This document shows, piece by piece, positions 2,391-63,670 of a stretch of 64,000 nt of DNA. The translations under genes were made by a program, and so were the position numbers. The notes under the pieces were generated by a model. It did not search any database, was not told where the DNA came from, and saw only the letters and a list, made by a program, of their open reading frames with translations. Source of the stretch: a virus; the IMG/VR virus record IMGVR_UViG_3300026290_000001, one strand, 5' to 3'. Every line of letters starts with the position of its first letter. The stretch's first letter is position 1.

Positions 2391-2446
2391 TATTTCTACC
2401 ATTCCTTACATTCTTTATACATTTTTTAAAGTTATCCACAGGCTAC

Positions 2447-2461
2447 AAATCCCAATATATA
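2447..2461. repeat. 15-bp motif ATCCCAATATATAGG, copy 1 (second copy at 5035-5049)
   Basis: Exact 15-mer found on both sides of the lysis cassette; each copy followed within 50 bp by ATTTGGTTCAAAT or its reverse complement. Confidence 0.4.
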
Positions 2462-2512
2462 GGCATTTGTTTTTCTGAAAATCATGATAAAAACCTTATT
2501 TGGTTCAAATTA

Positions 2513-2872: not shown

Positions 2873-2892
2873 ATGTAACCTCCCTCTACCCT

Positions 2893-5017: not shown

Positions 5018-5034
5018 AAAATCATTTTTAAGAA

Positions 5035-5049
5035 TCCCAATATATAGGG
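5035..5049. repeat. 15-bp motif ATCCCAATATATAGG, copy 2; forms hairpin ATCCC-AATATATA-GGGAT
   Basis: Exact match to 2447-2461; lies just downstream of the recombinase gene 5113-6117. Confidence 0.4.
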
Positions 5050-5112
5050 ATTTCTAAACCCGAAAATTTGAACCAAATTAAAGATTTGTTATGATACAAA
5101 ATAAAAACATAA

Positions 5113-14397: not shown

Positions 14398-14681
14398 AAA
14401 ATCAAATCCTTTCGGATAAATACTCTGCTTAAAAGCAGGTTATGCGTATCTATATACTATTACCATATATAGAATTCGTCCTCATCTCGACAATGATAAA
14501 ATAGCTTATATGTATATCACACCGAGCCTTACCCTCCAACTCTACTTAGTGATATACGATAGAGCAATGGTCTGATGCGTCAACCAAAGGTATCATAACT
14601 ATTCTATCGTAGTATAAATTTCTCTATACTAAGTCTGGTGAACTTAGACTTTAGAAGCCTCCGACTTTAGTCGGGGGTAGT
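14398..14681 (-). ncRNA. candidate omega RNA of IscB (structured 5' region; guide expected at the high-coordinate end)
   Basis: 284-bp non-coding gap directly upstream of iscB with higher GC than surroundings and several stems readable by eye (CCTCCGACT/AGTCGGGGG, TACGATAGAG/CTATTCTATCGTA, AGTCT..AGACT, CTGCTT..AAGCAG). Confidence 0.45.
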
Positions 14682-14927
14682 TCACTCTATTTCAGGATTG
14701 ATAGATAAATCATCTTTGCTTGTACTATTTACATTAGATAAATTATCTTCATTGGACAAATCATCATTAATAATTTGACTTAATTCGTCTATTTTAGAAC
14801 TTAATTTGATAATCTCTATCTGATACATATTATTTTGTAAACATAAAGTGACTACATCTAAGGGCAAATTACTATTGTTTATTAACTCTGCCAGTTTAAT
14901 ATTAAAATCACTTATAATAAAAATCAC
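14682..14927 (-). CDS. hypothetical protein
   Basis: 81-aa ORF upstream of IscB locus. Confidence 0.25.
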   Translation of the reverse strand: MIFIISDFNIKLAELINNSNLPLDVVTLCLQNNMYQIEIIKLSSKIDELSQIINDDLSNEDNLSNVNSTSKDDLSINPEIE

Positions 14928-20654: not shown

Positions 20655-20687
20655 AAAACAAAACAGAAGGGGAGTAGATACCCCTTC
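20655..20687 (-). terminator. intrinsic terminator-like hairpin after tape measure gene
   Basis: GC-rich stem GAAGGGG..CCCCTTC followed on minus strand by TGTTTTGTTTT. Confidence 0.45.
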
Positions 20688-29830: not shown

Positions 29831-30793
29831 TTAAAACACCACATAACTCACACCACTACCAACAATTGCATCTTCACTACCACCAGCAAACGGTACTGGT
29901 TCACTTAAAATATCTAATGGGAAACCTGCTTGATAAGTACCAACCACAAATAATGCTGCTAATTCAGGGGTATTATTAATTATACTTTCTACATTACCTG
30001 GCATTATCTGGTCTGGATCGCCATCAACATTAGTAGGAGAAGTAATTGTTAATAAATTATTAGCAAAACCAACAGTCCCTTGTTGACTTATTCCCGTACC
30101 AGCAACTAATATCACCGAATAATCATTTCCACTTACACCTGCTGTTTTACAATTAATTACCATAGAACCACCTGTTGAACCTGTTACAGTTACACTTGCT
30201 GGAATGGCAAGTTGAGTATCAGCAAATCCTATAGTATCACCAATGGAAGATGTTATTGTTCTTATATATTCAGTGTTATCTACACTGAATTTTATTGTTT
30301 TTGTGTTAAGCGAATCTAATTCAAAATTTTTAGTTGAATCTATTAATGTTGAAGTTGTTCCTATAGAAGTAGATGTACCATGAAGAAGTGCAGTTTGAAT
30401 GGGAGTAGTTATGGTTGCGTTTAGATTAGTAGGGATATTGGTTATTAAACTTGCTCCTACATCAACTACACGACCTGTAATTTTTAATGTTCCTCCACTA
30501 ACGGCAGATACTCGACATCTTACTCCTGCAAAATGTGCTAAATCTATGACGAAAACCTGATTGGCATTACCTGTGACAGATGTAGCAATTGTTAATTCTG
30601 GTAATTTAACAGCAGGAATAGGAAACCAATTAGGTGTAGATGAACCATCACAACCTTCAAAATGTACAGTATAATTAGCCGAACTAATAATATAAACCGC
30701 CATTTGATTGTTTCTACCTGTTTTAAAAGTTACTCCATTACCTGTAGTTGTTACATTATCTTGGAAAATCCAAGAGTTTGTTTGTACGTTCAT
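29831..30793 (-). CDS. putative major tail structural protein
   Basis: 320 aa, Thr/Gly/Ser-rich beta-type composition; preceded by strong RBS AAGGAGG and an unusual CA-rich leader. Confidence 0.35.
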   Translation of the reverse strand: MNVQTNSWIFQDNVTTTGNGVTFKTGRNNQMAVYIISSANYTVHFEGCDGSSTPNWFPIPAVKLPELTIATSVTGNANQVFVIDLAHFAGVRCRVSAVSGGTLKITGRVVDVGASLITNIPTNLNATITTPIQTALLHGTSTSIGTTSTLIDSTKNFELDSLNTKTIKFSVDNTEYIRTITSSIGDTIGFADTQLAIPASVTVTGSTGGSMVINCKTAGVSGNDYSVILVAGTGISQQGTVGFANNLLTITSPTNVDGDPDQIMPGNVESIINNTPELAALFVVGTYQAGFPLDILSEPVPFAGGSEDAIVGSGVSYVVF

Positions 30794-30960
30794 TTTATTT
30801 GCCTCCTTTTGATTTATGGATTTATGTTGTTTTGAGTGGTTGGTTGATTGATTGGTTAGTTAGTTGGTTGATTTGATTGGTTGAATGATAGTTGATTTGA
30901 TTTGATTTGATTGTTATTTGAGTGATAGTTGAAAGGTTAATAAAATAGGGTAGATACTGT
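30794..30960 (-). promoter_or_regulatory. CA-rich, G-free 5' leader with CAA/CAAT repeats upstream of 29831-30793
   Basis: Plus strand contains essentially only G/T/A (minus strand transcript C/A/U only) with tandem (CAA/CAAAT)n-like repeats. Confidence 0.4.
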
Positions 30961-30982
30961 AGGAATGTATCTACCCATGTGA

Positions 30983-31273
30983 TTATTTTTGTGGAATAAT
31001 TTTGTCAAATGTTTTCATTGTTTCTTTTATTGTTTCTTTTACCATTTCCTTTTCTTCTGAAAAATCTACATCAACCCAATCGCAATTTTGGGGAGAAAAA
31101 AGCATTTGAATATACCAGATATCCGAGTCTTTAACATGTTCCATATAATTACCATCTGTAAAATAAAAACCTTTTTTATCTTTACCTATGGTGTAGATTC
31201 TATCCATATAAAGACCAGGGGGTGGGGCGGCAGGACAAGTATAAGTTAATTTAACTTCATTGTATTTCATCAT
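30983..31273 (-). CDS. hypothetical protein
   Basis: 96-aa ORF; followed downstream by hairpin GGGTAGATAC..GTATCTACCC plus T-run. Confidence 0.3.
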   Translation of the reverse strand: MMKYNEVKLTYTCPAAPPPGLYMDRIYTIGKDKKGFYFTDGNYMEHVKDSDIWYIQMLFSPQNCDWVDVDFSEEKEMVKETIKETMKTFDKIIPQK

Positions 31274-41181: not shown

Positions 41182-42708
41182 TTATGTCCTATTATCAGGA
41201 TTATTACTATCAACCACCTGACCTGCTTCTGTTGATCCTTCTATATTATCCCCCTTACTTTTTGCCCCACCTTTATTAGAATCCTGATAAGCTGATTTAA
41301 GTGGCACAAATTTATCCGTAATTTTCATCACATCATTTTCAAGTAGTATCGAATTCATCACATCAGAAGGAGATAGTCCCAAAGACGCACAATAATGACG
41401 TTTTACTGGAAGTCCAACTGTACTTGCTTCTCTATACATAGTTGCTAATTCATTTTTGTTATATCTTGTAATGTCCAAGAAAGTAACCTTGAAATTTATT
41501 TTTTTATTTTCATCTTTCAATCTGCGATTTATCCATCTCTCAAATTGCCGTAATAATTGAAATACAGTTGCTTCATCACTCATAATGGCTTTGTTCAAGG
41601 CGGCACCAGATGCTTTATCACTATTAAAAATAAGTTTTGGTACACCAGCCGAATTATAAATTGAATTCTCTGCCAAACTTACTCCATCTAACTCTCTTTC
41701 ACTTTTATTAAGTTTAATGGATTCTACGGAATCAAAAGGGGATAATGCGATTCCGATTTGATTAGGTAAATTACTACCCATAAGCTGATAGTACTCTTTG
41801 GCAATATCTAAACTTAAGGCGAAATTATTGGCAGAATCATCACTTTTGTTATATGGAATCTTAGCAATAAGTAGTAAATAGTTTTCTAATTCAGTTTTAG
41901 ACATCTGAATATCCTTATACTCATAAAGTGAATAAATATCTTCAAATATTCCCGCCAAAGGTGGTATAGAATAATCGGTGTTAGATATTTTAATGCAAAT
42001 AGTTTTACTAGAATCTAACTCTTGCCATTTCATATTCTTTCTATCTTTTTTATAAATTTCATATTTTTCTCTAAATTCAGGAGCATACCTTTCTAAATCT
42101 TTTGGATAGGTGTCAAAATAATTGAACGAAAAACTGTAATTGTAGCACCCATCCTCAATACTACTTATAGCACAATAATCAGGGTTTAATAAATCAAAAA
42201 AGAAAGAATTTTTAGTTGAATAAATATACCCATACGCAACATCATCTATAAATGCCCTATATGTTAATTTTGAAAATTCATGTTTAATATTCATTGTTTC
42301 TAATAAATTTAATGTTGTTATATATTTTTTTTCTATTGTTGTAATTAAATCTTTAGTAATTTCATAATCAGTTTGGTTATATATATCTACCACATAATCA
42401 AAAGTTAACATTGTGGAAAAATAATCAATTAATCTTCTATAATGAGAAGAACTATCTAACAAAAACCTTGATAAATCTCTTAGTTTCTTTTCATATTTAT
42501 GAGGATTTGCTAACCATGCAATTACATCATTTTTTGAAAATGTTTTATTAAAAGTAGAATTTGGTTGAGTATTATTTAAATCTTTTTTTATGTATTTTGC
42601 AAACTCAGCAAAATGAAGCATCATACGTTGAAACTGCATATCTTCTTTACTTAATGGTACATCGGTTTTAATAATTTCTTCTTTAATATCTGTTTTAGTA
42701 TCTGTCAA
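41182..42708 (-). CDS. putative portal protein
   Basis: 508 aa, directly downstream of large terminase, acidic C-terminus. Confidence 0.45.
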   Translation of the reverse strand: MTDTKTDIKEEIIKTDVPLSKEDMQFQRMMLHFAEFAKYIKKDLNNTQPNSTFNKTFSKNDVIAWLANPHKYEKKLRDLSRFLLDSSSHYRRLIDYFSTMLTFDYVVDIYNQTDYEITKDLITTIEKKYITTLNLLETMNIKHEFSKLTYRAFIDDVAYGYIYSTKNSFFFDLLNPDYCAISSIEDGCYNYSFSFNYFDTYPKDLERYAPEFREKYEIYKKDRKNMKWQELDSSKTICIKISNTDYSIPPLAGIFEDIYSLYEYKDIQMSKTELENYLLLIAKIPYNKSDDSANNFALSLDIAKEYYQLMGSNLPNQIGIALSPFDSVESIKLNKSERELDGVSLAENSIYNSAGVPKLIFNSDKASGAALNKAIMSDEATVFQLLRQFERWINRRLKDENKKINFKVTFLDITRYNKNELATMYREASTVGLPVKRHYCASLGLSPSDVMNSILLENDVMKITDKFVPLKSAYQDSNKGGAKSKGDNIEGSTEAGQVVDSNNPDNRT

Positions 42709-42795: not shown

Positions 42796-44670
42796 TTATC
42801 GTTTGCGAATTTGGGGTTTTTTAAATTGAAATAATTCTTGGACATTAATATCGTTGTTGGTTTTTCTTTGTGTAATATGTTTTCTTCTTAATTGTTGCAA
42901 ATACCATGCTAACATGGCAATGCAATATGCACGGTCATCGTGCATGATTCTTTCTTTATCAGGTGGAAGATTATATCTATATCCACCATTAGGACTATCA
43001 AATCTATAAATATTTACCAATTCTTCTTTTGCCAAATCAATATTTTTTAATGCTAATTCTTCATCAAAAGATAATTTATGTATTTTTTGACTAGATTGAA
43101 TATCTTTCTTTTTATTTTTATTATCATCTTCATATTCTACTTCCTGATTCTCAAATAAAGAAATATATCCCTTCATATCATACTCTTCTGTAAATGATAT
43201 TAAATCTAATCCCAACATTTCAACTAATGCATCAAACATTTCATTTTTATATTTTTTAGGACTCATTAATTTTAATTTATCTACTGCATTTGGAAATTTA
43301 GTAATATAATCAGCAGATTCTATTTTATCAATCAACCCTTTATGTGGATTGCCTTGTTGATCAATCCAATCCTCCATAAGATAGTCTGCAATATTTACGC
43401 CAGCACCGCCAGCACCCGAATCAATGAGAATTGCTTCAATATTTTCATAATCAGCACATTGTTTTCCATTGTAATCTAAAATCATTTGTTTTAAATATGC
43501 AATTTGTTCTGGTGTTCTCATTGGTGTTTTTTTCTTCTTACCAATGTCTACAAAACTAACACCATTGCAAATTCTCATTTTATATCCAACTTGTTCATCA
43601 AAATAAATTTCACCAACTAAAGATACCGAATTATCATAACTCCTAGCAGGATCATATCCTATCACAAACTTACTATTATCAGTGTTATATAAAATAGGAG
43701 GTCTAACTTCACTATTTCTAATTATAACTGATCTTTTAATTGCCTGATTTTCTCCGCCTTCATTAGAAAATTTATTATAATACTCTCTTAAGGCTTTAAT
43801 TTTATTCTTTTTCATAGCATCTTCTACAACTTCTTTTTTCAACAAAGATGGGTAAACCTTACCATTATAAGTAGAATTAAATACAATTTCTACATTTATA
43901 TCTGCAACAAAATAATTTTTATTACCTAAAAACATCTCTTTGGCATAATCTCTATATACCTTGTAAAAATATGTGTCCGTACCAGATGCTGAAGATGCAA
44001 ATATTGCTTGGTTAGGAAACTCTTTAGGTAATAAATCTAAGTTTATATCTCCACCTAATTTAAAGTTACTATCTTGTGTAATAAAGGGTAGGGAAGTAAT
44101 AAACAATTCTTCTGGTGCAAAACCACTTTCATCATAAATATTTAAATTACTTCTTTTACTTCTATTATGATCAAAAGCACCATTTAGTGAATTTAAAGCA
44201 CTTCCATTATAAAGTTTATATTGAAATGAAGAAGGATTATGTGTAAATCCATCAGTATCAGACCTACTTTTAACTGTTTCATTATAAAAAACATCTGTTA
44301 ATCCAGTAAAAGAAGCAATTTCTCTTTTTGCTATTTTTTCTATTTTCATAAATGCTTCTTGTGCTTGACTACCAACTCCACTCATTACATATGCTTGAAA
44401 ATTAGATATTAAATTAGTCTTTGCCATTGCAAAAGGTGCAATCATTGTAGTTTTACCACTACCCCTACTCTGACACCATACACAAAAAGGAGTTGTCCAA
44501 CTCATCATAAAAACATACTTTTGACTATCTAAAAAATCAATTCCATAGAAACGTTCACAAAAACGAATGGGGTATTGCCTCCCCCATTGTACAATTTGTA
44601 CTAAACGCATATATCCTTCTAATTTTCTTTGAGACATTTCTTGTTTTGTTTTTTGAATAATATATTCCAT
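42796..44670 (-). CDS. terminase large subunit
   Basis: 624 aa; N-terminal ATPase Walker A CQSRGSGKTT; size and position typical. Confidence 0.8.
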   Translation of the reverse strand: MEYIIQKTKQEMSQRKLEGYMRLVQIVQWGRQYPIRFCERFYGIDFLDSQKYVFMMSWTTPFCVWCQSRGSGKTTMIAPFAMAKTNLISNFQAYVMSGVGSQAQEAFMKIEKIAKREIASFTGLTDVFYNETVKSRSDTDGFTHNPSSFQYKLYNGSALNSLNGAFDHNRSKRSNLNIYDESGFAPEELFITSLPFITQDSNFKLGGDINLDLLPKEFPNQAIFASSASGTDTYFYKVYRDYAKEMFLGNKNYFVADINVEIVFNSTYNGKVYPSLLKKEVVEDAMKKNKIKALREYYNKFSNEGGENQAIKRSVIIRNSEVRPPILYNTDNSKFVIGYDPARSYDNSVSLVGEIYFDEQVGYKMRICNGVSFVDIGKKKKTPMRTPEQIAYLKQMILDYNGKQCADYENIEAILIDSGAGGAGVNIADYLMEDWIDQQGNPHKGLIDKIESADYITKFPNAVDKLKLMSPKKYKNEMFDALVEMLGLDLISFTEEYDMKGYISLFENQEVEYEDDNKNKKKDIQSSQKIHKLSFDEELALKNIDLAKEELVNIYRFDSPNGGYRYNLPPDKERIMHDDRAYCIAMLAWYLQQLRRKHITQRKTNNDINVQELFQFKKPQIRKR

Positions 44671-47255: not shown

Positions 47256-47331
47256 TGGAGCCGAGTATAGGATTTGAACCCATAATCTGTTGTTTACAAG
47301 ACAACTGCCTTATCAATTTGGCTAACCCGGC
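47256..47331 (-). tRNA. tRNA-Thr (anticodon UGU), CCA encoded
   Basis: Minus-strand 76 nt: acceptor GCCGGGU/ACUCGGC, anticodon stem GUUGU/ACAAC with loop CUUGUAA, T-arm AUGGG-UUCAAAU-CCUAU, discriminator U + CCA. Confidence 0.75.
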
Positions 47332-48380: not shown

Positions 48381-49202
48381 TTAAGGATTTTCTATTACTT
48401 TAGCAGGTCTATATTTATCTTTATAATTATGCCATGCTTTTCTCTGCCATTCTAATTGTTTTTCCCTCCAACAACTCCTACAAAATTTTCTTCTATTAGA
48501 TGTTGCTTTTATTAATTTTCCACATTCATTACAATTAATAATTTTTGGATTACCATTATACAAATCAAAGTAATATCCAATATTATCAAAGGTAGTTATT
48601 TCAAAAACTACTATTCCATTTTCCTTGATATTATTCATAAATATAAGATGAATTTTCCCCTTCATTCTAACATCAACCAATCCTAAAATCTCTAATTCAT
48701 TAATTATGGCATTTATTTTATACTCATTATTAGATATTTTAGACACTTCTAATATCTCATTATATGTATTTTGATTACCACTTATATAATTATATTTTAA
48801 AACATTTCCGTATTTTAATTTATGTATTTCTTTATATATCTTCATTTCTACTAACAAAACAAACAGAATTTTTTTATAATTATACTCTATATCTAAATTA
48901 TTAATGTATTCAATTTCTTCGTTTGTTATAGGAATACTATCAATAATTATTAAAGGGTTATCTTTTCTACCTCCTTTTTTGAGTGCAGTATTAATTTGTT
49001 TGAAATATAAAACATCATTGAAATTAACTATATACTTCTTGCAAAATTCATATAATTTTTCTTTTCGTTGTTTAGGTTTTATGCCAAGTTTTTTCCAATA
49101 TTTAACTAACAAAACCAATTCATAATTATGACGTTCAGTTAAAAATCCATGTTGTTCAATTTGTTTTGCATATTCTTCTTCATTGTATTTTTCTTGAATC
49201 AA
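48381..49202 (-). CDS. hypothetical protein with C-terminal zinc ribbon
   Basis: 273 aa; C-terminal CNECGK...CRSC motif; translationally coupled to upstream 934-aa gene. Confidence 0.3.
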   Translation of the reverse strand: MIQEKYNEEEYAKQIEQHGFLTERHNYELVLLVKYWKKLGIKPKQRKEKLYEFCKKYIVNFNDVLYFKQINTALKKGGRKDNPLIIIDSIPITNEEIEYINNLDIEYNYKKILFVLLVEMKIYKEIHKLKYGNVLKYNYISGNQNTYNEILEVSKISNNEYKINAIINELEILGLVDVRMKGKIHLIFMNNIKENGIVVFEITTFDNIGYYFDLYNGNPKIINCNECGKLIKATSNRRKFCRSCWREKQLEWQRKAWHNYKDKYRPAKVIENP

Positions 49203-52003
49203 ATAATCACTTCTTCCAACTTGTACTTTTTATTCAAGTAAACAATACCCCCTTCTTTATTAGGCATGGGAAAAAATATAGATTCTTTTGTGTTTGATTT
49301 AATATTTGAAAAAATATACTTACCAAAGGAATTCCATAAAATATCTTTGTTTGAACTTTTATATTCACAATAAAATATTTCAACTAAATAATTAGTTAAT
49401 TCATATGCGTATGAACATATTTCAAACATTCTACTTTTAAAGTCATCATAAATATTATTTACAATACGATCAGATTCTTCATCAAATTGCTCTTTGTTGG
49501 CATTTTGATTAATACCCATAGTATTCAAGTCTTTTAATTCTTTCATAAATTTTTTATACTCATTTAATACTTTCTGATAGGTTTCTTGATTTTTAGGAAT
49601 ATCATTTTTCATATATAATTTATACAAATCACCTATTTTACTTGTTTTTAATTTACTTTTAATATCAAAATCAACATTTTCAATATGTTTACACAATAAA
49701 TTCATTACACTGTCACTATCAATTACTGGTAAAAATCTATAATATGCATCCACAAAAGACTGTTCTTTTTCATTACAATTTTCCTTAATTAATAGTTCAT
49801 TTAATGTTAATCCAAATTTTTGCTGACTAGACAAATCGTTACTTTTGACATATTTTTTATATTTATTATAGGTATTTTTATAAAGATGAATAAAAAAATA
49901 TGGATGTTTATCCAATAATATTTTATTTAAAAATTCCTTTTCTTTTTTAACTTTTTCATCATCATCTTTATAAATTTTTTGCCTTTCAATCCAAATCTTA
50001 GGAATGCCCTTAACTTTTTTACCTATTTTTGCTTTATCAATTTGAGCAGATTGAAGTTTCGTACACATTTTTAATCTATTTATCAATGTTTGATATTCCA
50101 AACTTTCTTTATTAAAAAGAGGGAGTAAGGCATAAGCACTTGTACTTTTATTTGTTATAGAGCCTATAGTGGAACCAAAGGCGAAAAGATCAGCTTTATA
50201 TAAATCTTCTTCTGTAAATACCATAGATATAGATTTAGGTGCATCATAAACCACTGGCAACTCATCTTGAAATATTGAATTTAATATTGTTTGATCAGAA
50301 GTAGTTGCAATAATATCAAAATCCCAATCACTTCCAGCCCAATTAAGAGTTTCATAACCATGTATATTTACTATTACTCCACCATCATCACAATACTTAT
50401 ACCATTTATTTAATTTATCATGATTAATTAAATTTAATTTCAAATGTTCTGATTTATAAGTAAGTGGTGCTCTCATTGAATCTACGATACAAACATTTTT
50501 TTTATTCCAATAATTACAATAATACTCTTTTTCTTTAAGCAATCCAGTAACCTTTTGCCCGCAAATATGTTGCATCATAGCATAGGGATCACTTACTAAA
50601 ACCTGAAAATTTCCATCTAAAATAATTTCACCAAGACAACCTCTTTTTATGATATTGTTAGTATATTTATAAACTTTATCTCTGATATATTTATCATTTT
50701 TTAATTCATGATTAACTATCAAACTTTTTAACCAATAATTATTACTATACTTTAAAAAATATTGAATACTTTCTTGAGTTATATTTTCTCCTAATAAAAA
50801 TAATAACGTATAATATATATTATCAAAATTGACCCCAGTAACCCAATCAACAAAAGGAGTACAAATCTTCTTAATATCTTTTTGGTTTAAATCCAAAGTC
50901 TGTAAAAATTGATAATTCATTTTTAATATATCATTAGGTTTTTTAGGAGAAGTTAAACTAACACCCCATTTTAAATCATTCATCTCGCAATTATGTATAT
51001 ATTCTTCTAAACTACCAAACGCATTCCAAAGTTTAAATTGACTTTCCGATACAACCACATCGATATCCCTTAAATCAACCTGTATTGGATTATTATTGTC
51101 TTTGTATATAGTATTTATTATATAATTACCATGATTTTCATTTTCACAATATTCATCTATATCAAATACGCAGAGCATCCCTTTCAGAAAATTCTGCCTG
51201 ACACAAAATTGACCAGGAATATAATCTAATCCTAATTCTTCTGCCCATTCTTTAGCTTTACTTGGTTTAATCAACCCTTGACCATCAAACCTATTAAAAC
51301 TCAACTCTACTTCTTTAATTACAATATCATCATCTTTATTTTCTTCTGTTTCAGTTACAAAATTAACATTAACTTTTTGCTTAATTTCATAATCAGGCAC
51401 TACACAAAATTTAGGCGTACTTACTATTTTTGTAGATGAACCCGACAATCCTTTATATGCATTGTATTTAGAAGGGCATAGGGGTATATTTTTATCTCTA
51501 TTATTATCTAAAATTTCATTAAGTTGATTTAAAATTTTCTCGTTGCAAAATACCACTGTTGAAACTCTGGATTGACTGGCAGATGATGATAATCTAAAAT
51601 ACCGTTCAGAATTTAATAATAATCCATTTTTAAATAAATAATTATAATGTGAGTTATGTTCCATTACTATAGTTATGTACTCAGGAATAAAAAGCATATC
51701 TAAAATATTATTTTGTAATTCTATTATTCTACTTGAGTTTTCCTTTGAATATATTTGTTTTTTTAACCTATCTCTTTCTTTATACCATTGTTCAAGTTGT
51801 ATATAATTAATTTCTTTACCAGTTATTTTTCTAATACTTCTAAGAATTTGATTGTCTGATAAAGCAATTAACTCACCATTTTGTTTAGCTTGTTGTGGAG
51901 TTAATTGTATATCATACCCATATTCTTTAAGCCTAGATGATTTAAATTTCATAGTATATAATTGTCTATTTATCAATATTTTTTGCCTCCAATAAATCTT
52001 CAT
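49199..52003 (-). CDS. large hypothetical protein (replication/recombination module candidate)
   Basis: 934-aa ORF overlapping both neighbours (operon); no unambiguous catalytic motif recognised by eye. Confidence 0.4.
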   Translation of the reverse strand: MKIYWRQKILINRQLYTMKFKSSRLKEYGYDIQLTPQQAKQNGELIALSDNQILRSIRKITGKEINYIQLEQWYKERDRLKKQIYSKENSSRIIELQNNILDMLFIPEYITIVMEHNSHYNYLFKNGLLLNSERYFRLSSSASQSRVSTVVFCNEKILNQLNEILDNNRDKNIPLCPSKYNAYKGLSGSSTKIVSTPKFCVVPDYEIKQKVNVNFVTETEENKDDDIVIKEVELSFNRFDGQGLIKPSKAKEWAEELGLDYIPGQFCVRQNFLKGMLCVFDIDEYCENENHGNYIINTIYKDNNNPIQVDLRDIDVVVSESQFKLWNAFGSLEEYIHNCEMNDLKWGVSLTSPKKPNDILKMNYQFLQTLDLNQKDIKKICTPFVDWVTGVNFDNIYYTLLFLLGENITQESIQYFLKYSNNYWLKSLIVNHELKNDKYIRDKVYKYTNNIIKRGCLGEIILDGNFQVLVSDPYAMMQHICGQKVTGLLKEKEYYCNYWNKKNVCIVDSMRAPLTYKSEHLKLNLINHDKLNKWYKYCDDGGVIVNIHGYETLNWAGSDWDFDIIATTSDQTILNSIFQDELPVVYDAPKSISMVFTEEDLYKADLFAFGSTIGSITNKSTSAYALLPLFNKESLEYQTLINRLKMCTKLQSAQIDKAKIGKKVKGIPKIWIERQKIYKDDDEKVKKEKEFLNKILLDKHPYFFIHLYKNTYNKYKKYVKSNDLSSQQKFGLTLNELLIKENCNEKEQSFVDAYYRFLPVIDSDSVMNLLCKHIENVDFDIKSKLKTSKIGDLYKLYMKNDIPKNQETYQKVLNEYKKFMKELKDLNTMGINQNANKEQFDEESDRIVNNIYDDFKSRMFEICSYAYELTNYLVEIFYCEYKSSNKDILWNSFGKYIFSNIKSNTKESIFFPMPNKEGGIVYLNKKYKLEEVII

Positions 52004-54186: not shown

Positions 54187-55014
54187 CTATTGATTAGATA
54201 GTAATTTTTCTTTATGTTCCCTTACACGTTTAATTGCTAAATTAAAATATTGATCATGTGGTTCACTCAGACTCCATTCAAAACCTATGTAATTTCTTTC
54301 AGTATTTAAACAAGCTATCGCTGTTGTGCCTGAACCTATGCAATTATCTAAGACTAAATCTCCTTCATTTGTATATGTTTTAATTAGATATTCAAATAAT
54401 TTTACTGGTTTTTGAGTGGGGTGTGGTAATTTTTCTTTAGAATTTGAATTAACTATAGGATTATATATTACAGTTGATGGATTTTTTAATTTTGCATTGT
54501 ACACATCATAACTTCTTCCAGCATAATCTGTATTAAAAACAATTTCATTATCTTTTCTTTTTGAGATAGAACTTCTAAAATTAATATTATTATTTTCTTG
54601 CATTTGTTTCATTCTTTCGCTTTTACGTTCTATCATTTGTCTATTATATGTATATTTATTTTTTGCAAATATTAATATATTTTCATGATATTTTAAATGT
54701 CTATATTTTGCATTTGCAAAATTACTCGCTCTATCTTTTTCCCATATTAGTTCTTCTTTAAACCAATCAATATTACTACAAATTAATTTGCTTGTAAATG
54801 GTTGACTTGCTGTTAATACTATAGCACCATTATCTTTTATAATTCTTTTATACTGTTCCCAAAGTTTATCAAAAGAAATTAAACTATCCCATTTTGCTAT
54901 TGTAGTTCCATAAGGTAGATCACATAAAATCATATCTATACTTTTATCAGGTAATAAACACATACCATTTTCACCAATACAATCTTCGTTATAAATAGTA
55001 TTTAATTTAATCAA
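54187..55014 (-). CDS. DNA methyltransferase (N6-adenine/N4-cytosine amino-MTase)
   Basis: Motif IV-like ILCDLPYGTT near N-terminus and SAM-binding LVLDNCIGSGTTAIA near C-terminus. Confidence 0.75.
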   Translation of the reverse strand: MIKLNTIYNEDCIGENGMCLLPDKSIDMILCDLPYGTTIAKWDSLISFDKLWEQYKRIIKDNGAIVLTASQPFTSKLICSNIDWFKEELIWEKDRASNFANAKYRHLKYHENILIFAKNKYTYNRQMIERKSERMKQMQENNNINFRSSISKRKDNEIVFNTDYAGRSYDVYNAKLKNPSTVIYNPIVNSNSKEKLPHPTQKPVKLFEYLIKTYTNEGDLVLDNCIGSGTTAIACLNTERNYIGFEWSLSEPHDQYFNLAIKRVREHKEKLLSNQ

Positions 55015-55089
55015 TTATGTATTATTCCTCCTATATTTATATTACTAAAATAATACTACGACTCAAAATTAAAAAATTATTTCTTACTC

Positions 55090-55413
55090 TTAATCTTTTT
55101 TCTCTTTCTTTTCCTTAGATTTTTTTGCCTTTTGTAATCTTTCTCCCATTTCTTTCTTTTGAGCCTCAGTTAACTTTTTCTTTTTGGTTGGTGCTCTAAA
55201 TGAAATCAACTTCTTATCACAAACAAATTCTTTTCCCACTAATTCATTATCTTCATCAAATTGATCACTAACATGCTGATATGATTCAGGATACTGTTTA
55301 CAAAGTTTATCCAGTTTGTTTAAATCTGCACGAATAAAAGTTATTATTTGTGCTTTTTTAGAATCTTCATCAATCCCTACGCAAGTATAACGCTCCATTT
55401 TTTCTAATGCCAT
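55090..55413 (-). CDS. hypothetical protein with Lys-rich C-terminal tail
   Basis: 107 aa, C-terminus KKKKLTEAQKKEMGERLQKAKKSKEKKEKKD. Confidence 0.3.
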   Translation of the reverse strand: MALEKMERYTCVGIDEDSKKAQIITFIRADLNKLDKLCKQYPESYQHVSDQFDEDNELVGKEFVCDKKLISFRAPTKKKKLTEAQKKEMGERLQKAKKSKEKKEKKD

Positions 55414-55454
55414 ATGTATAAATTCCTTCTTTCATTTTTATATTAATAAAATAA

Positions 55455-56204
55455 TTAAAATTCCACTAATCTATTTTTCGCTATTTCACAATATTTTTCT
55501 TCTAATTCAATTCCAATACATTTACGTTTAAGATTTCGTGCCGCCAATAAAGTTGTTCCTGAACCACAGGTAAAATCTAAAATAAGATCGTTTTCATTTG
55601 TGTATGTATTAATTAAATATTCCATTAATTCTAATGGTTTTTGTGTAGGATGAAATAAATTATTATTTGGATTTGCAAAATTTAATATATTTTTAGGATA
55701 ACCTTTAGCATTACTATTTCCAAAATGCTTTTCTTTCCCAAAAGTATATTCTCCATCCACTTTATTTTCTCTACTTGGTCTATTATTATTAAATTCTCCA
55801 TAAATTAACCCTTGCGGATTATAAATGCATTGATTTTTATAAAAAACTAAAACATCTTCTATTGCTCTCATTGGTTGTTTTTTAGCATTTAAATGACCAC
55901 TTGGTTTAGTTTTTATCCATTTCCAATCATATTTATATTCTTTAATATTACTAATTCTTAAAAAACTACTAAAAGGTTCTCCTCCAAACAATAATGTAGG
56001 TGTTGTATTTTTTGTTAATTTATGTAATCTATCCCACATGTCATTAAATTTGATAATTTCATCCCATTTACATTTAGTAGTACCGTATGGTGGGTCAGTA
56101 ATTATTGCATCAAATTTAATACCTTTCTCAATAATCTTATCCATTACCTCTAAACAATCACCTTGAAATAATCTTATGTATTCGTCTTTATAGTATAATT
56201 TCAA
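55455..56204 (-). CDS. DNA methyltransferase (amino-MTase), paralog of 56249-57034
   Basis: IITDPPYGTT motif and LDFTCGSGTTLLAA SAM-binding motif; N- and C-termini near-identical to neighbour, central region differs. Confidence 0.8.
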   Translation of the reverse strand: MKLYYKDEYIRLFQGDCLEVMDKIIEKGIKFDAIITDPPYGTTKCKWDEIIKFNDMWDRLHKLTKNTTPTLLFGGEPFSSFLRISNIKEYKYDWKWIKTKPSGHLNAKKQPMRAIEDVLVFYKNQCIYNPQGLIYGEFNNNRPSRENKVDGEYTFGKEKHFGNSNAKGYPKNILNFANPNNNLFHPTQKPLELMEYLINTYTNENDLILDFTCGSGTTLLAARNLKRKCIGIELEEKYCEIAKNRLVEF

Positions 56205-56248
56205 TTTATGTAAATATATCTCCTTTCATTTTTATATTAATAAAATAA

Positions 56249-57034
56249 TTAAAATTCCACTAATCTATTTTTCGCTATTTCACAATATTTTTCTTCTAAT
56301 TCAATTCCAATACATTTACGTTTAAGATTTCTTGCCGCTAACAATGTTGTCCCTGAACCACAGGTAAAATCTAAAATAAGTTCGTTTTCTTTTGTGTATG
56401 TATTAATAAGGTATTCTAATAGTTCAATTGGTTTTTGAGTCGGATGTAATTTTTTCCCTGACATACTAGCGTTGCTTAAAGTATAAATACTTGTTGGATG
56501 TCTATCTTTATATTCTTTATGCCCCAAGTCTTTTATGGTATGTCCTTCTCTTAATGTGCTATTTCTTGAACCATAAAATGTTTTATTAACTTTTTTTATA
56601 TCATCTCGTTTTGTTTTTTGAGGATAATAATTCATTTCATTACCTTTTGAGAAAACTGCTTTTGCTTTACTAAAAATTAAAATATTTTCATGTACTCTAC
56701 CTACTTGAAAATTCATCATTTGAAAATTAGATGGTTTTACTTTATCCCAAATAATTTCATATCTAAATAGTTGAGGATTACTCATAATTAAAGCACTCGT
56801 AAAAGGTTGAGAACCATTCAATACTATTGCACCTTTATCTTTGATTAATTGAGTAATTTTATCCCACATCTTATCAAAAGGAATTATCGTGTCCCATTTA
56901 CATGCTGTAGTACCATAAGGTGGATCAGTTATTATCGCATCAAATTCAATACCTTTCTCAATCAATTTATCCATCACTTCTAAACAGTCACCTTGAAACA
57001 ATCTTATGTATTCATCTTTATAGTATAATTTCAT
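56249..57034 (-). CDS. DNA methyltransferase (amino-MTase), paralog of 55455-56204
   Basis: IITDPPYGTT and LDFTCGSGTTLLAA motifs; upstream/downstream non-coding sequence also duplicated. Confidence 0.8.
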   Translation of the reverse strand: MKLYYKDEYIRLFQGDCLEVMDKLIEKGIEFDAIITDPPYGTTACKWDTIIPFDKMWDKITQLIKDKGAIVLNGSQPFTSALIMSNPQLFRYEIIWDKVKPSNFQMMNFQVGRVHENILIFSKAKAVFSKGNEMNYYPQKTKRDDIKKVNKTFYGSRNSTLREGHTIKDLGHKEYKDRHPTSIYTLSNASMSGKKLHPTQKPIELLEYLINTYTKENELILDFTCGSGTTLLAARNLKRKCIGIELEEKYCEIAKNRLVEF

Positions 57035-59713: not shown

Positions 59714-60592
59714 TTAAATAGCACAATTATTCATACTTTTTCTTATATCATCTTGTGAAGGATGTAAATATATTTGAGTAGTAGAAAGCGAACCATGACC
59801 AAGTATCTGCTGAAGAGCCTTGAGATTCCCACCATTTTCTAAAAAATTAGTAGCAAATACATGTCTTAATGAATGACAAGTTATTACATTACTATGTTTG
59901 TTAAATATTCTTTCAACACTACTACTTTCTAATTTTTCACTTTTGTTGCTTAAAAATAAATATTTACTTCCTAATACATTATAAGCATACTTATAATTCT
60001 TTCTATCATCAATCGCTTTTTTAATAATCTCAATAGCAGTTTCATTCAATGGTATTATTCTTTGCTTACTTCCCTTACCAATAACTTTAAGATTCTTTCT
60101 TTTAAAATTAATATCATCCAACTCAATATTTAATGCTTCAGATATTCTTAAGCCAGTATTCAGAAGTAAAGCAACTATATAATAATTCCTATCACATTCA
60201 TTCTTCCTTATTCTTTCCATAAATTTTATTGCTTCAGATTTAGTAATACTAGTTGGAGATGTTAATTGTTTTTGTATGCGTATATAATCCTGTCCCAATA
60301 TCACCAAACTATCCTGATACCCCATCTTAACCAAAAATTCATTATAACTTTTCAAAGCACTTAACCTTCTATTTATTGTCTTAGCATCAACATTTCTTTC
60401 TTTAAGTAAATATTCCTTATACTCCGCAATCTGATCTCTACTAATAATCTGGGGTTCAATTCCAAAATACTCAAAAAACAAACCAATATCATGAGAATAA
60501 GATTTTATTGTATTGATAGATTTACCTTGTTCTACTAGGTGGTTGATGTATTCGGTTAAATAATTTTCATTTGCAACGAGATTCATATTCAT
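59714..60592 (-). CDS. tyrosine recombinase (XerD-like)
   Basis: Motifs NTGLRISEALNI, HSLRHVFATNFLENGG, LGHGSLSTTQIYLH. Confidence 0.8.
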   Translation of the reverse strand: MNMNLVANENYLTEYINHLVEQGKSINTIKSYSHDIGLFFEYFGIEPQIISRDQIAEYKEYLLKERNVDAKTINRRLSALKSYNEFLVKMGYQDSLVILGQDYIRIQKQLTSPTSITKSEAIKFMERIRKNECDRNYYIVALLLNTGLRISEALNIELDDINFKRKNLKVIGKGSKQRIIPLNETAIEIIKKAIDDRKNYKYAYNVLGSKYLFLSNKSEKLESSSVERIFNKHSNVITCHSLRHVFATNFLENGGNLKALQQILGHGSLSTTQIYLHPSQDDIRKSMNNCAI

Positions 60593-60826
60593 AATTTATC
60601 TCTCCTTTAGATTAATAATATAATTTAATATAAGTATATGCTTTGGTTAAATTAATCATACAATATAATTTAAATTATTGCAAGTAAAATATAAAAATAA
60701 ATATAAATATTTTATTTCAATGAATAATATCCTTTCTATTGGTTAATTTATATGAAACAAGTTTCTTATGTAGTGGGTTGGGATAAACCCAATCGCAAGG
60801 AGAACACAGGTTTTATAATATTCATA

Positions 60827-61060
60827 TTAACAGATTTTGCTAGGTTCAATAGTTTGACGGTAATCAGAGAGATAAACGACTTTAGGATGGTTAATACGTT
60901 GCCATTTAAGTTGTTCTTCTCTGATCCGTCTTTTTTCTTCTATTTTAATGTTCTTGTTGTATTGCTTTATTTCTTTTCTAAATCTCTTATCTCTTTCAGC
61001 AACAATTTGAAAGTAAATCCAGGTAATTATTAGAATACCTATTCCAATTAAAATTTTCAT
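60827..61060 (-). CDS. small membrane protein (uncertain)
   Basis: 77 aa, N-terminal TM helix then basic region. Confidence 0.2.
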   Translation of the reverse strand: MKILIGIGILIITWIYFQIVAERDKRFRKEIKQYNKNIKIEEKRRIREEQLKWQRINHPKVVYLSDYRQTIEPSKIC

Positions 61061-61444
61061 TTACATCTTCCTTTCTTAAATTTTGCTCCAATCATTATCA
61101 TAATGTTTATATCCTTGTGGTTTATTTAGTAATGCTTCTTTTATAGTTGCATGTTCAGAGATAATTTTTCACTTTCAGTTTCCTATACATAACCGTTTTC
61201 ATTGATGATAAAGTTATACCAAGGTACTAATAATGCTATTGGCATTGCAACTCTCCTTAATATCATTTCCATTCATTAACATCTCCTTTATGATTTGATC
61301 TATATGGATTGTTTGAATTTCTGGAGTAAGGATTTGTGTGGGTGAACCACCATTGTTGAATGTAGAAAGAAAAATAGGATATCGTTTCTTGTGGATTAAT
61401 ACCTATCCAGTCTAGAAAAAACATTGTAGGTAAACCTCCTTTCT

Positions 61445-62160
61445 ATGTGGAAATGTGTGTAGAAATATATATGGAATTTATATAGTTAAATGTGTTATTT
61501 GATTGATTAATAATATGATTTATTTTTAGATTTTAGAAATGGTAAGTTGTGGATTGTAGGATGGGTTATAAATATGTTTTTAAAGCAAATTTAATTATTT
61601 AGTTTATTTGTAGTCGGGAAGGTATGTGGAACAGGAAGGAATAATTGAGCAGAAAGTAGAATGAATATTGATATATTGGGAGTTTAGATAGTTTTTAGGC
61701 ATGAATTTTGTGTTAATTTTGATTATTGGAAGATTGATACAGAAGGTTGATTTTTTGTTGTCGGGGAAATTGAGATGAAGTGGTGAATTTTTAGGGTGGT
61801 TTTTTATTGAGTTTATAAAGGAATTTGAGTGTAGAAATGGTGATTAGGTGGGAGGTAAGGGGTAAGGGTAGGGAGAGAGGAAATAGGGTGGTTTTAGAGT
61901 GGATTTTGTTGGAGTTTTGTTATAAAGATTGTGGGATTTTTGTTTTTGGGAGTGGGAGGATATTGGGAGAATGTAGATGGGATGGATGTAGGTGAGATGG
62001 ATGGTTTGACGAGTGAGAGACGATGTGAATTTTGGTGGTTTTAGGGATATTTTATGTTGTCGGTATGGAATTTTTGTTTATGTGTGGAATAGATGTGATA
62101 GCGAACATATGTTCGATTAAAGTGACCGGAAATTTGTAAACTGGGGGTGGTATGGGTAGG
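61445..62160. other. C-depleted (G/T/A-only on plus strand) non-coding region with G-tract repeats; canonical G-quadruplex motif at 61850-61873
   Basis: Very few cytosines across about 700 nt on plus strand; motif GGG-aggtaa-GGGG-taa-GGG-ta-GGG; no ORFs. Confidence 0.5.
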
Positions 62161-62282
62161 TATATATAATACTGATATAATAATAGCACATGACAGGCTA
62201 TAACTCCCGGTATAATGGCATTAGCAAGCTATCTGATAATGCAATATAATGTATGATTATATTGTATTGGGTGAATTGGATC

Positions 62283-62450
62283 GGGGAAATAGCAGGGAAA
62301 ATAAGTGGGAAATAACCTGGGAAGCTGGTAGGGAAATGACTGATCAGGAAGCATCAAAAAAACTGGTAGTATCGGTAATGAAAATAGTAAAGATAATAAG
62401 TTGTCGTGGAAATCGTTTTTAATAACAGAACAGATGTTCGGGAAATGATT
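62283..62450. repeat. iteron-like GGGAAAT/GGAAAT repeats
   Basis: At least six spaced copies (cGGGGAAATa, aGGGAAAAta, tGGGAAATa, aGGGAAATg, tGGAAATc, cGGGAAATg) upstream of a promoter-like element. Confidence 0.35.
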
Positions 62451-62485
62451 ATAAATTAATAAAATAAAAATAATTATAAAAATAC

Positions 62486-62520
62486 TTGCATCTATGTTGG
62501 CAATATGATAGTATAGTATA
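62486..62520 (+). promoter_or_regulatory. sigma70-like promoter candidate for plus-strand small-gene cluster
   Basis: TTGCAT followed at about 17 nt by TAGTAT/TATAGT, then RBS AAGGAGGTG and ATG at 62601. Confidence 0.35.
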
Positions 62521-62600
62521 TAGATATGATCTTTGATAATAGCATAGTAACCTTAGTTTGCCTTACGCAAGCTATCTTTACAAGAAAGGAGGTGGCACGA

Positions 62601-62726
62601 ATGATAATGACTGAAAAAATGAACATAGAAATTGAAAACATTGAAAACATTTTAGCTGATAATGAACTATCCGATACAGAAAAAATCAAGCTTATTGAAC
62701 AGACTATAAAAGCAATAAGAAGGTAA
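62601..62726 (+). CDS. 41-aa small protein, copy A (start refined to ATG with RBS)
   Basis: RBS AAGGAGGTG 8 nt upstream; MIMTEKMNIEIENIENILADNELSDTEKIKLIEQTIKAIRR; near-identical copy at 62980-63105. Confidence 0.4.
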   Translation: MIMTEKMNIEIENIENILADNELSDTEKIKLIEQTIKAIRR

Positions 62727-62760
62727 TACCTTAAATAAAAATAGGAAGGAGGTGAAAAAA

Positions 62761-62940
62761 ATGAAATTATCAAAAATTGATAACAACGGCATAACCTTAT
62801 ATCTAACAATCATAAACGGCATTAACATGCTAACCGGAAACCCTGCTAAAGCTCTAAAATTTGAAACAGCTAAAGCAGCAAACAATTATAAAAACAATCT
62901 CACTCATCCAAACTTGCAGGGATTACAAGTAAGTCTATAA
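62761..62940 (+). CDS. hypothetical small protein
   Basis: RBS GGAAGGAGGTG upstream of ATG at 62761; lies between the duplicated small ORFs. Confidence 0.35.
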   Translation: MKLSKIDNNGITLYLTIINGINMLTGNPAKALKFETAKAANNYKNNLTHPNLQGLQVSL

Positions 62941-62979
62941 AACCGAGATTTTATCTTAACAGGAAAAGAGGTGAAAAAA

Positions 62980-63105
62980 ATGATAATGACTGAAAAAATG
63001 AACATAGAAATTGAAAACATTGAAAACATTTTAGCTGATAATGAATTAACAGATAGTGAAAAAATCCAGTATATTGAACAGACTATAAAAGCAATAAGGA
63101 GGTAA
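62980..63105 (+). CDS. 41-aa small protein, copy B
   Basis: RBS AAAGAGGTG; MIMTEKMNIEIENIENILADNELTDSEKIQYIEQTIKAIRR. Confidence 0.4.
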   Translation: MIMTEKMNIEIENIENILADNELTDSEKIQYIEQTIKAIRR

Positions 63106-63199
63106 TACCTTTTACCCGATAGCACTCACACCATAACAGAGTGCTATTCGTAAAGGGTATTAAAAACCCTAAAAATAAAATTAGAAGGGAATTGATAAA

Positions 63200-63670
63200 A
63201 TGGCAAAGCAAATAACGAGTGAATTAGAGGGTAAATGGTATAAAATTCCAGATTATAAAATAATGTTAGTGCGAGATAGCAATATAACAGCCGACAAAAA
63301 AAGAATATCTCATCCTAATGATGTTGTCAATGTATTCCAAACATATTTAGAAGGTTTAGACAGAGAACATTTTTGCATTGCTATGCTAGATAGAAAAAAT
63401 AATATTTTAGGTATTAATACGGTATCAATAGGTAGTATAAGTGCAAGTATAGTTCACCCGCGCGAAGTTTTTAAACCAGCTATTATAATTGGTGCATCAA
63501 GTATTATCCTTTGTCATAATCACCCAAGTGGTGATACAATGCCAAGCAATGAAGATATAACAATAACAAGAAAATTAGTAGAAGGCGGAAAACTACTAAA
63601 TATTGAAATACTTGATCATGTTATTATTGGCGATAATTATTACAGTATGAAGGAAAAAGGAATTATTTAA
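63200..63670 (+). CDS. RadC-like JAB/MPN domain protein
   Basis: JAMM motif region ...ILCHNHPSGDTMPSNEDI... and upstream conserved E (HPREVFK), size 156 aa typical of RadC-like. Confidence 0.75.
   Translation: MAKQITSELEGKWYKIPDYKIMLVRDSNITADKKRISHPNDVVNVFQTYLEGLDREHFCIAMLDRKNNILGINTVSIGSISASIVHPREVFKPAIIIGASSIILCHNHPSGDTMPSNEDITITRKLVEGGKLLNIEILDHVIIGDNYYSMKEKGII

Follow-up and report, generated by a model that had tools for sequence, protein, structure and literature searches.

A long, C-rich, G-free, unstructured, and untranslated RNA is the textbook loading substrate (rut, for Rho utilization) of the termination factor Rho, which Bacillus and Clostridium both have. In vitro, Rho-dependent termination was found for every Escherichia coli or Salmonella template whose C>G bubble exceeded 78 bp or 700 %xbp (Nadiras et al. 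2018, PMC6144790). In phage SPbeta of Bacillus subtilis 168, the packaging site (pac), or genome opening point, has been placed in the yonR-yonP gap, from which packaging proceeds toward yonP (bioRxiv 10.1101/2021.11.22.469490; PMC8270828), and the promoter region there has been reported to be a target of the MrpR repressor (PMC10516654). We found no function assigned in this SPbeta literature to the G-poor stretch upstream of yonP (PMC10516654, bioRxiv 10.1101/2021.11.22.469490, PMC8270828), and a full-text literature search turned up no description of a natural G-free, G-less, or guanine-free phage leader. Here, we describe a noncoding tract that is almost free of guanine on one strand over ∼0.66 kb. 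It is located in a 64,000-nucleotide stretch of viral DNA (IMG/VR record IMGVR_UViG_3300026290_000001; the whole stretch is termed the window herein); the phage as a whole measures ∼135 kb and is a relative of SPbeta and c-st. The tract is real and conserved, and we tentatively consider that it might be an SOS-controlled leader that loads Rho at the head of an early operon.

RESULTS

One strand of the tract is nearly devoid of guanine

Between positions 61445 and 62160 (716 nucleotides [nt]), the plus strand contains 16 C residues (2.2%), together with 31% G, 38% T, and 29% A, compared to averages of 16.7% C and 12% G for the whole window. The core block (61444 to 62101) has 10 C residues in 658 nt (1.5%) and 31% G. 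Its 247-nt run without any C (61763 to 62009) is the longest in the window, with a chance of about 1e-20 at the C frequency of the window, and the GC skew rises to +1.0 at 61800 to 61999. Since G is raised and T is not, C-to-T hypermutation could be ruled out as the source of the tract. A previous reading of the window from the sequence alone (the sequence-only reading) had pointed out the cytosine depletion, and the counts bear it out. It had also placed the tract correctly between minus-strand genes on one side (the first open reading frame [ORF] starts at 61424) and a plus-strand cluster on the other (from 62603), and its statement that the tract holds no ORFs is essentially right: the longest plus-strand ORF (61825 to 61995, 56 codons) was equalled or exceeded in 6.4% of shuffles, and stop codons break the homologous stretch in a related locus (L015, see below). 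Coding potential was therefore rejected. On the minus strand, the G-free tract halts 4 nt short of the Shine-Dalgarno sequence of the first minus-strand ORF (61263 to 61424; 53 amino acids [aa], no assigned function, skipped by one gene caller), the layout being GGAGG-N10-ATG.

Related loci carry the block in the same place and orientation

A blastn search of 61000 to 63000 against the INPHARED phages gave no match, and first scans of viral contigs, for which the queries were the recombinase next to the block and a 31-mer of the block itself, were likewise negative. Seven metagenome contigs were 100% identical to the window over the region and offered no variation to compare. Diverged relatives (L010, L011, L014, L015, L016, and L018) were reached via homologues of the adjacent recombinase (85 to 48% identical); a scan of a genome collection with a recombinase profile returned only generic XerC/XerD genes (∼30% identity) and served as a negative control. 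Altogether, more than 12 related loci have a G-poor block of 0.4 to 1.5 kb in the same place and the same orientation. In all six loci named above, the operon-sense strand of this block is G-poor (2 to 4% G) and C-rich. No block of ≥400 nt was present in 868 kb of unrelated bacterial loci, which are GC-richer than, and not GC-matched to, the phage loci.

The blocks of the relatives lie behind a common head that consists of CCC.TACTTTACAAA, a spacer of ∼17 to 19 nt, (C/A)GAACAnnTGTTC(G), and then TATCACATCT. Searching the metagenome collection with this head pattern yielded 8 loci, and the 7 with >200 nt of downstream sequence all run into a block of 2 to 4% G (580 to 1100 nt where untruncated). 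On the divergent side of L010, L016, and the Bacillus velezensis plasmid plaBV1 (L122), mirrored blocks were observed that are G-poor in their own outward sense. The block of L011, too, extends as far as its Shine-Dalgarno sequence. Different relatives have different genes behind the block: a small ORF, a gene for a 232-aa protein, a gene for a ParM-like protein, or the recombinase gene.

Multiple alignment revealed a few islands conserved in a fixed order: CATACCGACAACATAAA; CATCGTCCC.ACATCGTAAAA; a C-tract island followed by TTCTACACTCAAA; and CCACGACAACAAAAA. The rare G residues are mostly inside the conserved islands, usually as CpG, and between the islands the sequence is not conserved. 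The CCGAC(A/T)AC motif of the CATACCGACAACATA island recurs in the window at 61755 to 61767 and 61608 to 61620; together, the island and these copies hold 3 of the 10 G residues of the block, and GTTGTCG occurs 8 times across 7 blocks. In the island at 61826 to 61873, the TTCTACACTCAAA part is conserved and the C-tract pattern is not. The complement of this island is the canonical G-quadruplex (G4) motif GGG-aggtaa-GGGG-taa-GGG-ta-GGG (61850 to 61873), which is present exactly as the sequence-only reading gave it; just 2% of composition-matched shuffles hold a canonical G4 motif. Among the relatives, the motif was found in L015 and is absent from L114 (the closest diverged relative), L010, L011, L014, L016, and L018; tracts of three or more G residues are as frequent as composition predicts, and L011 is depleted of them. 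The emphasis that had been placed on the G4 was therefore not borne out.

Some further features of the related loci were noted. The 1.5-kb G-free block of L015 contains an antisense gene (2412 to 3179, minus strand; 255 aa) with a GHEISHML (HExxH) motif, the last 86 codons of which hold a single C, so that this coding sequence obeys the strand composition of the block. In both L010 (2283 to 2640, after a (CAAACA)n repeat) and L015 (1060 to 1300), a GC-rich, apparently structured noncoding stretch without an Rfam match separates the mirrored block from the first divergent-cluster gene. The divergent cluster of L016, a related 139-kb phage, contains a Pistol self-cleaving ribozyme (RF02679, 44.3 bits, E = 6.8e-5; 1186 to 1250, minus strand). 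The Rfam 15 covariance models gave no match to the blocks of L010, L011, L014, L015, and L016 and none at E ≤ 1 within 60500 to 63500 of the window.

Substitutions point to selection on strand composition

The block of L114 is 75.7% identical to that of the window, compared to 88 to 92% for the flanking genes. The 108 substitutions between the two blocks comprise 42 CT, 32 AC, 27 AT, 5 AG, 2 GT, and 0 CG exchanges, so that 6.5% involve G, versus 33% (16/48) in the coding flank. If mutation were strand-symmetric, A-to-G and T-to-C changes would be expected in about equal numbers, yet the former are about five-fold rarer, suggesting that new G residues on the minus strand are purged by selection.

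In the pooled blocks (7.1 kb), short motifs were neither strongly enriched nor strongly depleted, and among longer k-mers only the single-copy islands stood out; no repeats were enriched. This lack of repeated motifs argues against arrays of binding sites, and iterons, centromere repeats, and boxes for the terminase small subunit (TerS) were rejected for the block body. The polarity of the blocks by itself would suit translocase-orienting sequences (KOPS or SRS) that point toward a dif-like site. Across ten blocks, these motifs are at chance level (GGGNAGGG once, in the window; GAGAAGGG never; GAAGAAG once, in L011) and any other octamer is repeated at most 1 to 3 times per block, so that such polarity arrays were likewise rejected. 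Decoys for MazF (UACAU) and sponges for the anti-Shine-Dalgarno sequence (CCUCC) were dismissed too, their motifs being at chance level. Taken together, the data argue for a constraint that concerns the single strand in its entirety, i.e., its composition rather than its sequence.

The head of the block combines a LexA box with a promoter-like hexamer

In the minus sense, a perfect LexA box (CGAACATATGTTCG) directly precedes the block, and a second LexA-type box (AGAACAGATGTTCG) lies farther upstream (Table 1). GAAC-N4-GTTC sites occur twice in the 64 kb (0.5 expected), both times in this intergenic region; 8 of 100 shuffles reach two. The second box aligns with L010 3502 to 3532, and the stretch between the two boxes also has more C than G on the minus strand. 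At the head of the block, the LexA box is kept in L010, L011, L015, and L016; in L014 it is off the GAAC-N4-GTTC pattern at one position, and in L018 the box is missing and TTTACA is kept. The TTTACA hexamer is invariant in 7 loci and is also present in SPbeta, plaBV1, and the Bacillus phage BUCT082. The block starts within ∼15 nt of the LexA box and the TATCAC motif, and the conserved segment at 62085 to 62101 is the likely transcript start. Conservation and the LexA box suggest a promoter at the head of the block that LexA may bind; no sigma-A −10 hexamer could be assigned to it.

The minus-sense RNA is predicted to be structure-free and rich in Rho descriptors

Over 61601 to 62050, minus-sense 150-nt segments have a predicted minimum free energy (MFE) of 0.0 kcal/mol (the mean for the strand being −21.4 ± 6.9). 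Of all 150-nt segments of the minus strand in the window, the seven with the least structure fall within the block. When the plus-sense strand is treated as RNA, its folding is about average, at −11 to −23 kcal/mol. The sense strand (657 nt) contains 2 start codons and lacks AGG, GGA, and GAG triplets altogether. The RNA is thus predicted to be unstructured and ribosome-free, as is expected of a rut region. The C>G bubble (61372 to 62237, minus strand) has an area of 20,313 %xbp, 4 times that of the next largest on the strand, and a maximum C-G difference of 47%; it exceeds the ≥∼78 nt on the nontemplate strand that defines a rut region in E. coli and Salmonella, a value that may not apply to the Rho of the host. 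YC dimers number 137 per 657 nt, versus a strand mean of 36, and are more frequent than in composition-matched shuffles (z = 2.9); an excess of z ∼3 was found in 4 of 7 relatives. For the spacing rule (YC-N9-13), where ≥4 repeats are called for, there are 60 starts of a 4-repeat motif and 37 starts of a 6-repeat motif.

A second G-free leader was observed in the window. It is CAA-rich and ∼150 nt long (30807 to 30956, minus sense), is located between a terminator-like hairpin (∼30957 to 30990) and an AAGGAGG ribosome-binding site, just ahead of the tail genes, and precedes the ORF at 29831 to 30793 (320 aa, no family match). It is the 8th least structured 150-nt segment of the minus strand.

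The head resembles the SPbeta region next to the packaging site

Upstream of yonP-yonO in SPbeta (record NC_001884, positions 64300 to 64543), the sense strand has 5 to 7% G and ∼30% C. Its head can be aligned with the family (MAFFT), showing TATTTACA, followed by GGAACAGATGTACC, CCATTTCCACACC, and ATCGTAATCGCTATCGTAAAA. Comparison of L011 with the SPbeta head gave a Smith-Waterman score of 45 (z = 10.3), above all 500 shuffles; nhmmer with the head profile did not detect SPbeta. The BUCT082 record begins ∼205 nt upstream of its TTTACA, and homology together with synteny places the opening point of SPbeta and BUCT082 ∼205 to 240 bp upstream of the TTTACA head, outside the block. In plaBV1 (4440 to 5200), two divergent G-poor blocks flank sequence homologous to this opening point; they lie just downstream of a tubR-tubZ-like gene pair. 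The plasmid-prophage plaBV1 and BUCT082 are also the closest cultured relatives found for the YonO-like polymerase of the window. The opening-point sequence is not recognizable in the window, and pac of the window phage was not located; by the homology to SPbeta, the block is probably adjacent to pac.

The central region, on the far side of the LexA box from the block, has two candidate protein-binding sites, a conserved 79-nt element and an array of GGGAA(A/G) repeats (Table 1). The 79-nt element holds a plus-sense promoter-like sequence, TTAGCA-18-TATAAT (62221 to 62250). Also inside it is an inverted repeat, AATGCAATATAAT-gtatg-ATTATATTGTATT (13-5-13; 62238 to 62268), with the layout of a tyrosine-recombinase core site; it is ∼1.7 kb from the Xer-like recombinase gene and is not conserved in L014, L015, and L016. 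Repeats of the array start at 62284, 62295, 62307, 62319, and 62331, with more copies at 61763, 62408, and 62441, and possible ligands of the array include the terminase small subunit at pac, a partition protein at a centromere, or a regulator at an operator.

Genes and other features of the window

Metagenome contigs of 134.8 to 138.1 kb contain the same sequence as the window, in which almost every gene between ∼2500 and 61424 is encoded by the minus strand. Relatives infect hosts of the genera Bacillus and Clostridium. The early operon behind the tract encodes the recombinase, three methyltransferases, a CoiA-like nuclease, and the 934-aa YonO-like protein (49199 to 52003), a distant relative of the SPbeta RNA polymerase YonO. 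The coordinates of the main features are given in Table 1.

Table 1. Positions of the block, its head, the central region, and selected genes in the window
Feature	Position	Strand	Remarks
2014-aa ORF	20687-26731		taken as the tape-measure protein from length and position only
Portal protein	41182-42708		
Terminase	42796-44670		
934-aa YonO-like protein	49199-52003		55% identical to a protein of Bacillus phage BUCT082 and Bacillus velezensis plasmid plaBV1
Recombinase (Xer-like)	59714-60592		on the side of the minus-strand genes
Shine-Dalgarno GGAGG (61435-61439) and ATG (61422-61424)	61422-61439	-	of the first minus-strand ORF
Core block	61444-62101	-	minus strand 39% A, 31% C, 1.5% G (10 G), 29% T; noncoding; predicted structure-free as RNA
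Island CCCTACCCTTACCCCTTACCTCCC...CCATTTCTACACTCAAA	61826-61873	-	partly conserved; complement is the G4 motif at 61850-61873
Island CATCGT-N-CTCGT	62005-62027	-	CATCGTCCC.ACATCGTAAAA in relatives; ATCGTAATCGCTATCGTAAAA in SPbeta
Island CATACCGACAACATA	62054-62068	-	conserved
TATCACATCT...CCACAC	62085-62101	-	conserved; just downstream of the LexA box; likely transcript start
LexA box CGAACATATGTTCG	62102-62115	.	perfect 14-bp palindrome, Gram-positive Cheo type (GAAC-N4-GTTC); adjoins the upstream end of the block (minus sense); LexA binding putative
TTTACA	62135-62140	-	-35-like hexamer; part of conserved CCC.TACTTTACAAA; precedes the LexA box by ∼19-20 nt; from alignments
Central element, 79 nt	62196-62274	.	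conserved; 80% identical to L010; candidate protein-binding site
Five GGGAA(A/G) repeats	62284-62336	+	period 11-12 bp; read from the sequence; candidate protein-binding array
Second LexA-type box AGAACAGATGTTCG	62427-62440	.	325 bp upstream in the minus sense

Several other features were recorded. Three N6_N4 DNA methyltransferase genes lie in a row on the minus strand (54187 to 57034), at 54187 to 55014, 55455 to 56204, and 56249 to 57034; the latter two have identical N- and C-terminal sequences, and related contigs hold one, two, or three copies. A tRNA-Thr (TGT) gene (47256 to 47331, minus strand) lies between the early and the structural genes. An HEARO RNA (Rfam RF02033, 121.7 bits; 14475 to 14685, minus strand) directly upstream of a 430-aa ORF (13105 to 14397, minus strand) has the layout of an IscB/omega-RNA (OMEGA) element, judged from the arrangement only. 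Near the left end, a C-terminal tyrosine integrase fragment (…RLHDLRHTFA…LGHS…; 2060 to 2300, plus strand) without an intact N terminus is located beside a 142-nt C-free stretch (1903 to 2044). In the plus-strand cluster, a small gene (MIMTEKMNIEIENIENILADNEL...) is duplicated at 62603 to 62726 and 62971 to 63105, with ∼88% identical DNA; the first copy also contains the ends of two independent metagenome contigs (window positions 62629 and 62643), which are probably assembly breaks.

DISCUSSION

The G-free strand as a probable transcript

We think it probable that the G-free strand acts as a transcript or in a transcription-coupled role. Four observations lead us to this view: the polarity of the block follows the operon in all loci; the divergent blocks of L010, L016, and plaBV1 are G-poor outward; a conserved promoter-like head that includes an SOS box marks the start of the tract; and G-free sequence stops exactly at a ribosome-binding site in three cases, namely, the block of the window, that of L011, and the second leader. 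One of the options named by the sequence-only reading, a G-free noncoding RNA on the minus strand, fits best with the polarity in every relative, the promoter-like head, and the MFE of zero.

More specifically, the block might be a structure-free, rut-like leader under SOS control, which would load Rho at the head of the early operon; we put this forward as a tentative proposal. Upon cleavage of LexA, the host RNA polymerase would transcribe ∼0.66 kb starting from the LexA-box head. This RNA would not fold, having no G to pair with C or U, and it would escape translation, with its two start codons and no Shine-Dalgarno-like triplet. Being rich in C and in YC dimers, it would load Rho, and the leader would then work as an attenuator or insulator. 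In the lysogen, rare leaky transcripts would terminate ahead of the early genes, and the dense transcription induced by the SOS response would pass the block, or titrate Rho, and reach the early genes, including that of the YonO-like polymerase. We infer promoter activity, transcript, Rho loading, and filtering role alike.

Several observations weigh against this proposal. No sigma-A −10 hexamer can be placed 16 to 18 nt after TTTACA. A strong sigma-A promoter is located between the block and the first gene in L010, L014, L015, L016, L018, and SPbeta, and terminator-like hairpins follow the block in L016 and BUCT082, with two antisense genes next in BUCT082; in those loci, the block resembles a separate noncoding transcription unit more than a leader. 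The enrichment of YC dimers over composition is missing in 3 of the 7 relatives. The bubble evidence comes from E. coli and Salmonella templates, and the Rho of the host may have other preferences than that of E. coli. Finally, by SPbeta homology, the block adjoins the start of packaging, so that a role at the DNA level is possible.

Alternative explanations

The first alternative is that the block encodes a stand-alone, SOS-induced RNA that acts in trans: a long guanine-free RNA of 0.25 to 1.5 kb, switched on beside the packaging site of SPbeta/c-st-like phage-plasmids. Such an RNA might represent a new class of phage element, one set by composition instead of sequence or fold. As a decoy or sponge, it could for example sequester Rho or some other single-stranded-RNA-binding protein of the host, allowing the very long early and late operons to be read through, and the DNA, with its strand purity, might have an additional part in packaging or in the processing of ends. 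We also count here a variant in which the act of transcribing beside the packaging site is what matters and the RNA is kept inert. The block of L016 ends in two terminator-like hairpins, which are followed by a separate promoter (TTGACA-17-TATTAT) for the recombinase, and the G-poor stretch of BUCT082 ends in a hairpin and a T-run ahead of its antisense genes, both as expected of a free RNA. Since the gene behind the block differs among the relatives, the conserved unit is the head plus the block, not the block plus a gene, and the constraint on composition without repeated motifs fits this explanation as well. However, the window and L011 have no terminator, and there the block runs directly into the ribosome-binding site. 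Moreover, with RNase J and RNase Y, an unstructured RNA should turn over fast in Firmicutes unless it is bound by protein, and no partner protein was identified. Overall, we consider an RNA acting in trans doubtful.

Somewhat less likely is a DNA-level element by pac that gives direction, e.g., a runway for the terminase or an end region in which the two strands behave differently once cut; resection could, for instance, expose a G/T-rich, C-free 3′ tail for recombinase loading or for protection from AddAB. This idea draws on the homology of the block head to the region upstream of SPbeta yonP, where pac lies in the yonR-yonP gap, on the start of the BUCT082 record and the divergence of the plaBV1 blocks from the opening-point homologue, and on the GGGAA array of the window. 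The packaging-related site proposed in the sequence-only reading holds up only as proximity to the probable pac region, and the block body has no repeated protein-binding motifs. KOPS/SRS octamers, too, are nearly absent, with one KOPS-like site (GGGTAGGG) in the block of the window and none in the other nine blocks. In headful packaging, only the first molecule of a series has an end at pac, and the structure-free strand is the C-rich one, which 5′-to-3′ resection would remove. In addition, an end of the G-free tract exactly at the Shine-Dalgarno sequence in three cases suits a feature of the mRNA better.

The block could also act in translation of the first gene, as a structure-free 5′ untranslated region that provides ribosome standby or enhances translation, as might be expected from the G-free tract abutting the Shine-Dalgarno sequence. 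The second, 150-nt leader of the window likewise precedes, after a terminator hairpin, a probably highly expressed tail-region gene, and only these two leaders show the signature among the 25 minus-strand gaps of ≥70 nt (a count on which we rejected G-free leaders as a general style of the phage). Nevertheless, 0.66 to 1.5 kb far exceeds what standby binding needs, the first ORF encodes a protein of only 53 aa, to which no function is assigned and which one gene caller missed, and in several relatives a promoter or terminator parts the block from the gene. We therefore regard this function as improbable.

Least of all do we favor the replication origin or switch-like region that the sequence-only reading had suggested, taken here as a G4 or R-loop element of the G-rich plus strand: in L010, L016, and plaBV1, the G-rich strands do converge on the central region, and a 420-bp AT-rich stretch lies nearby in L016, but the G4 is not conserved, the skew is the reverse of that of a bidirectional origin, an R-loop would need plus-sense transcription, for which no conserved promoter was found, and the C-rich minus-sense RNA disfavors R-loops by its hybrid thermodynamics, making this explanation very improbable.

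Significance and comparison with known systems

It is unusual for a natural tract to be G-less over several hundred to 1,500 nt. Here, one base is kept out by strand-specific selection while the sequence drifts. If the block is indeed a giant Rho-loading SOS leader, it would be a new route to a tight, threshold-like switch between lysis and lysogeny in temperate phages and phage-plasmids of Firmicutes, and Rho would gain a defined role in the SPbeta group. The weaker homologue upstream of yonP in SPbeta of B. subtilis 168 makes the proposal testable in a model organism with rho mutants. If, on the other hand, the block is linked to packaging, it would help to define the pac region of these phages.

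Among known systems, the block resembles rut regions and the leaders that attenuate by Rho-dependent termination, such as rutA/rutB of lambda tR1, the rho leader, and the Salmonella mgtA and corA leaders. These, too, would place a C-rich, G-poor, unstructured, and untranslated RNA ahead of genes, and the block reaches the descriptors of C>G bubble and YC dimers in extreme form. It differs from them in being 5 to 10 times longer, in having G nearly abolished rather than merely low, in being conserved as a composition across a phage clade, and in its coupling to a LexA box next to the putative pac region. The SPbeta yonR-yonP region shares with it TTTACA, the GAACA..TGT(T/A)C box, CCACAC, ATCGT repeats, a G-poor and C-rich stretch, and a proximal sigma-A promoter, and it likewise heads an operon with the YonO RNA polymerase. 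In SPbeta, however, the G-poor stretch is only ∼240 nt long with 5 to 7% G, and the box is a degenerate SOS box.

CA-rich ribosome standby leaders and translation enhancers are also structure-free, A/C-rich 5′ leaders that abut a ribosome-binding site, but they measure tens of nucleotides, in contrast to the 0.66 to 1.5 kb of the block, and in relatives a promoter or terminator often intervenes between the block and the gene. Immunoglobulin switch regions and R-loop elements of origins are long tracts with an extreme G/C strand asymmetry in a transcribed position; in these the nontemplate strand is the G-rich one, whereas the polarity of the block relative to its promoter-like head is the opposite and its G-tracts are not conserved. 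The synthetic G-less cassette used in transcription assays likewise gives a transcript without G over several hundred nucleotides; the cassette is a laboratory construct, whereas the block is natural and appears to be maintained by selection.

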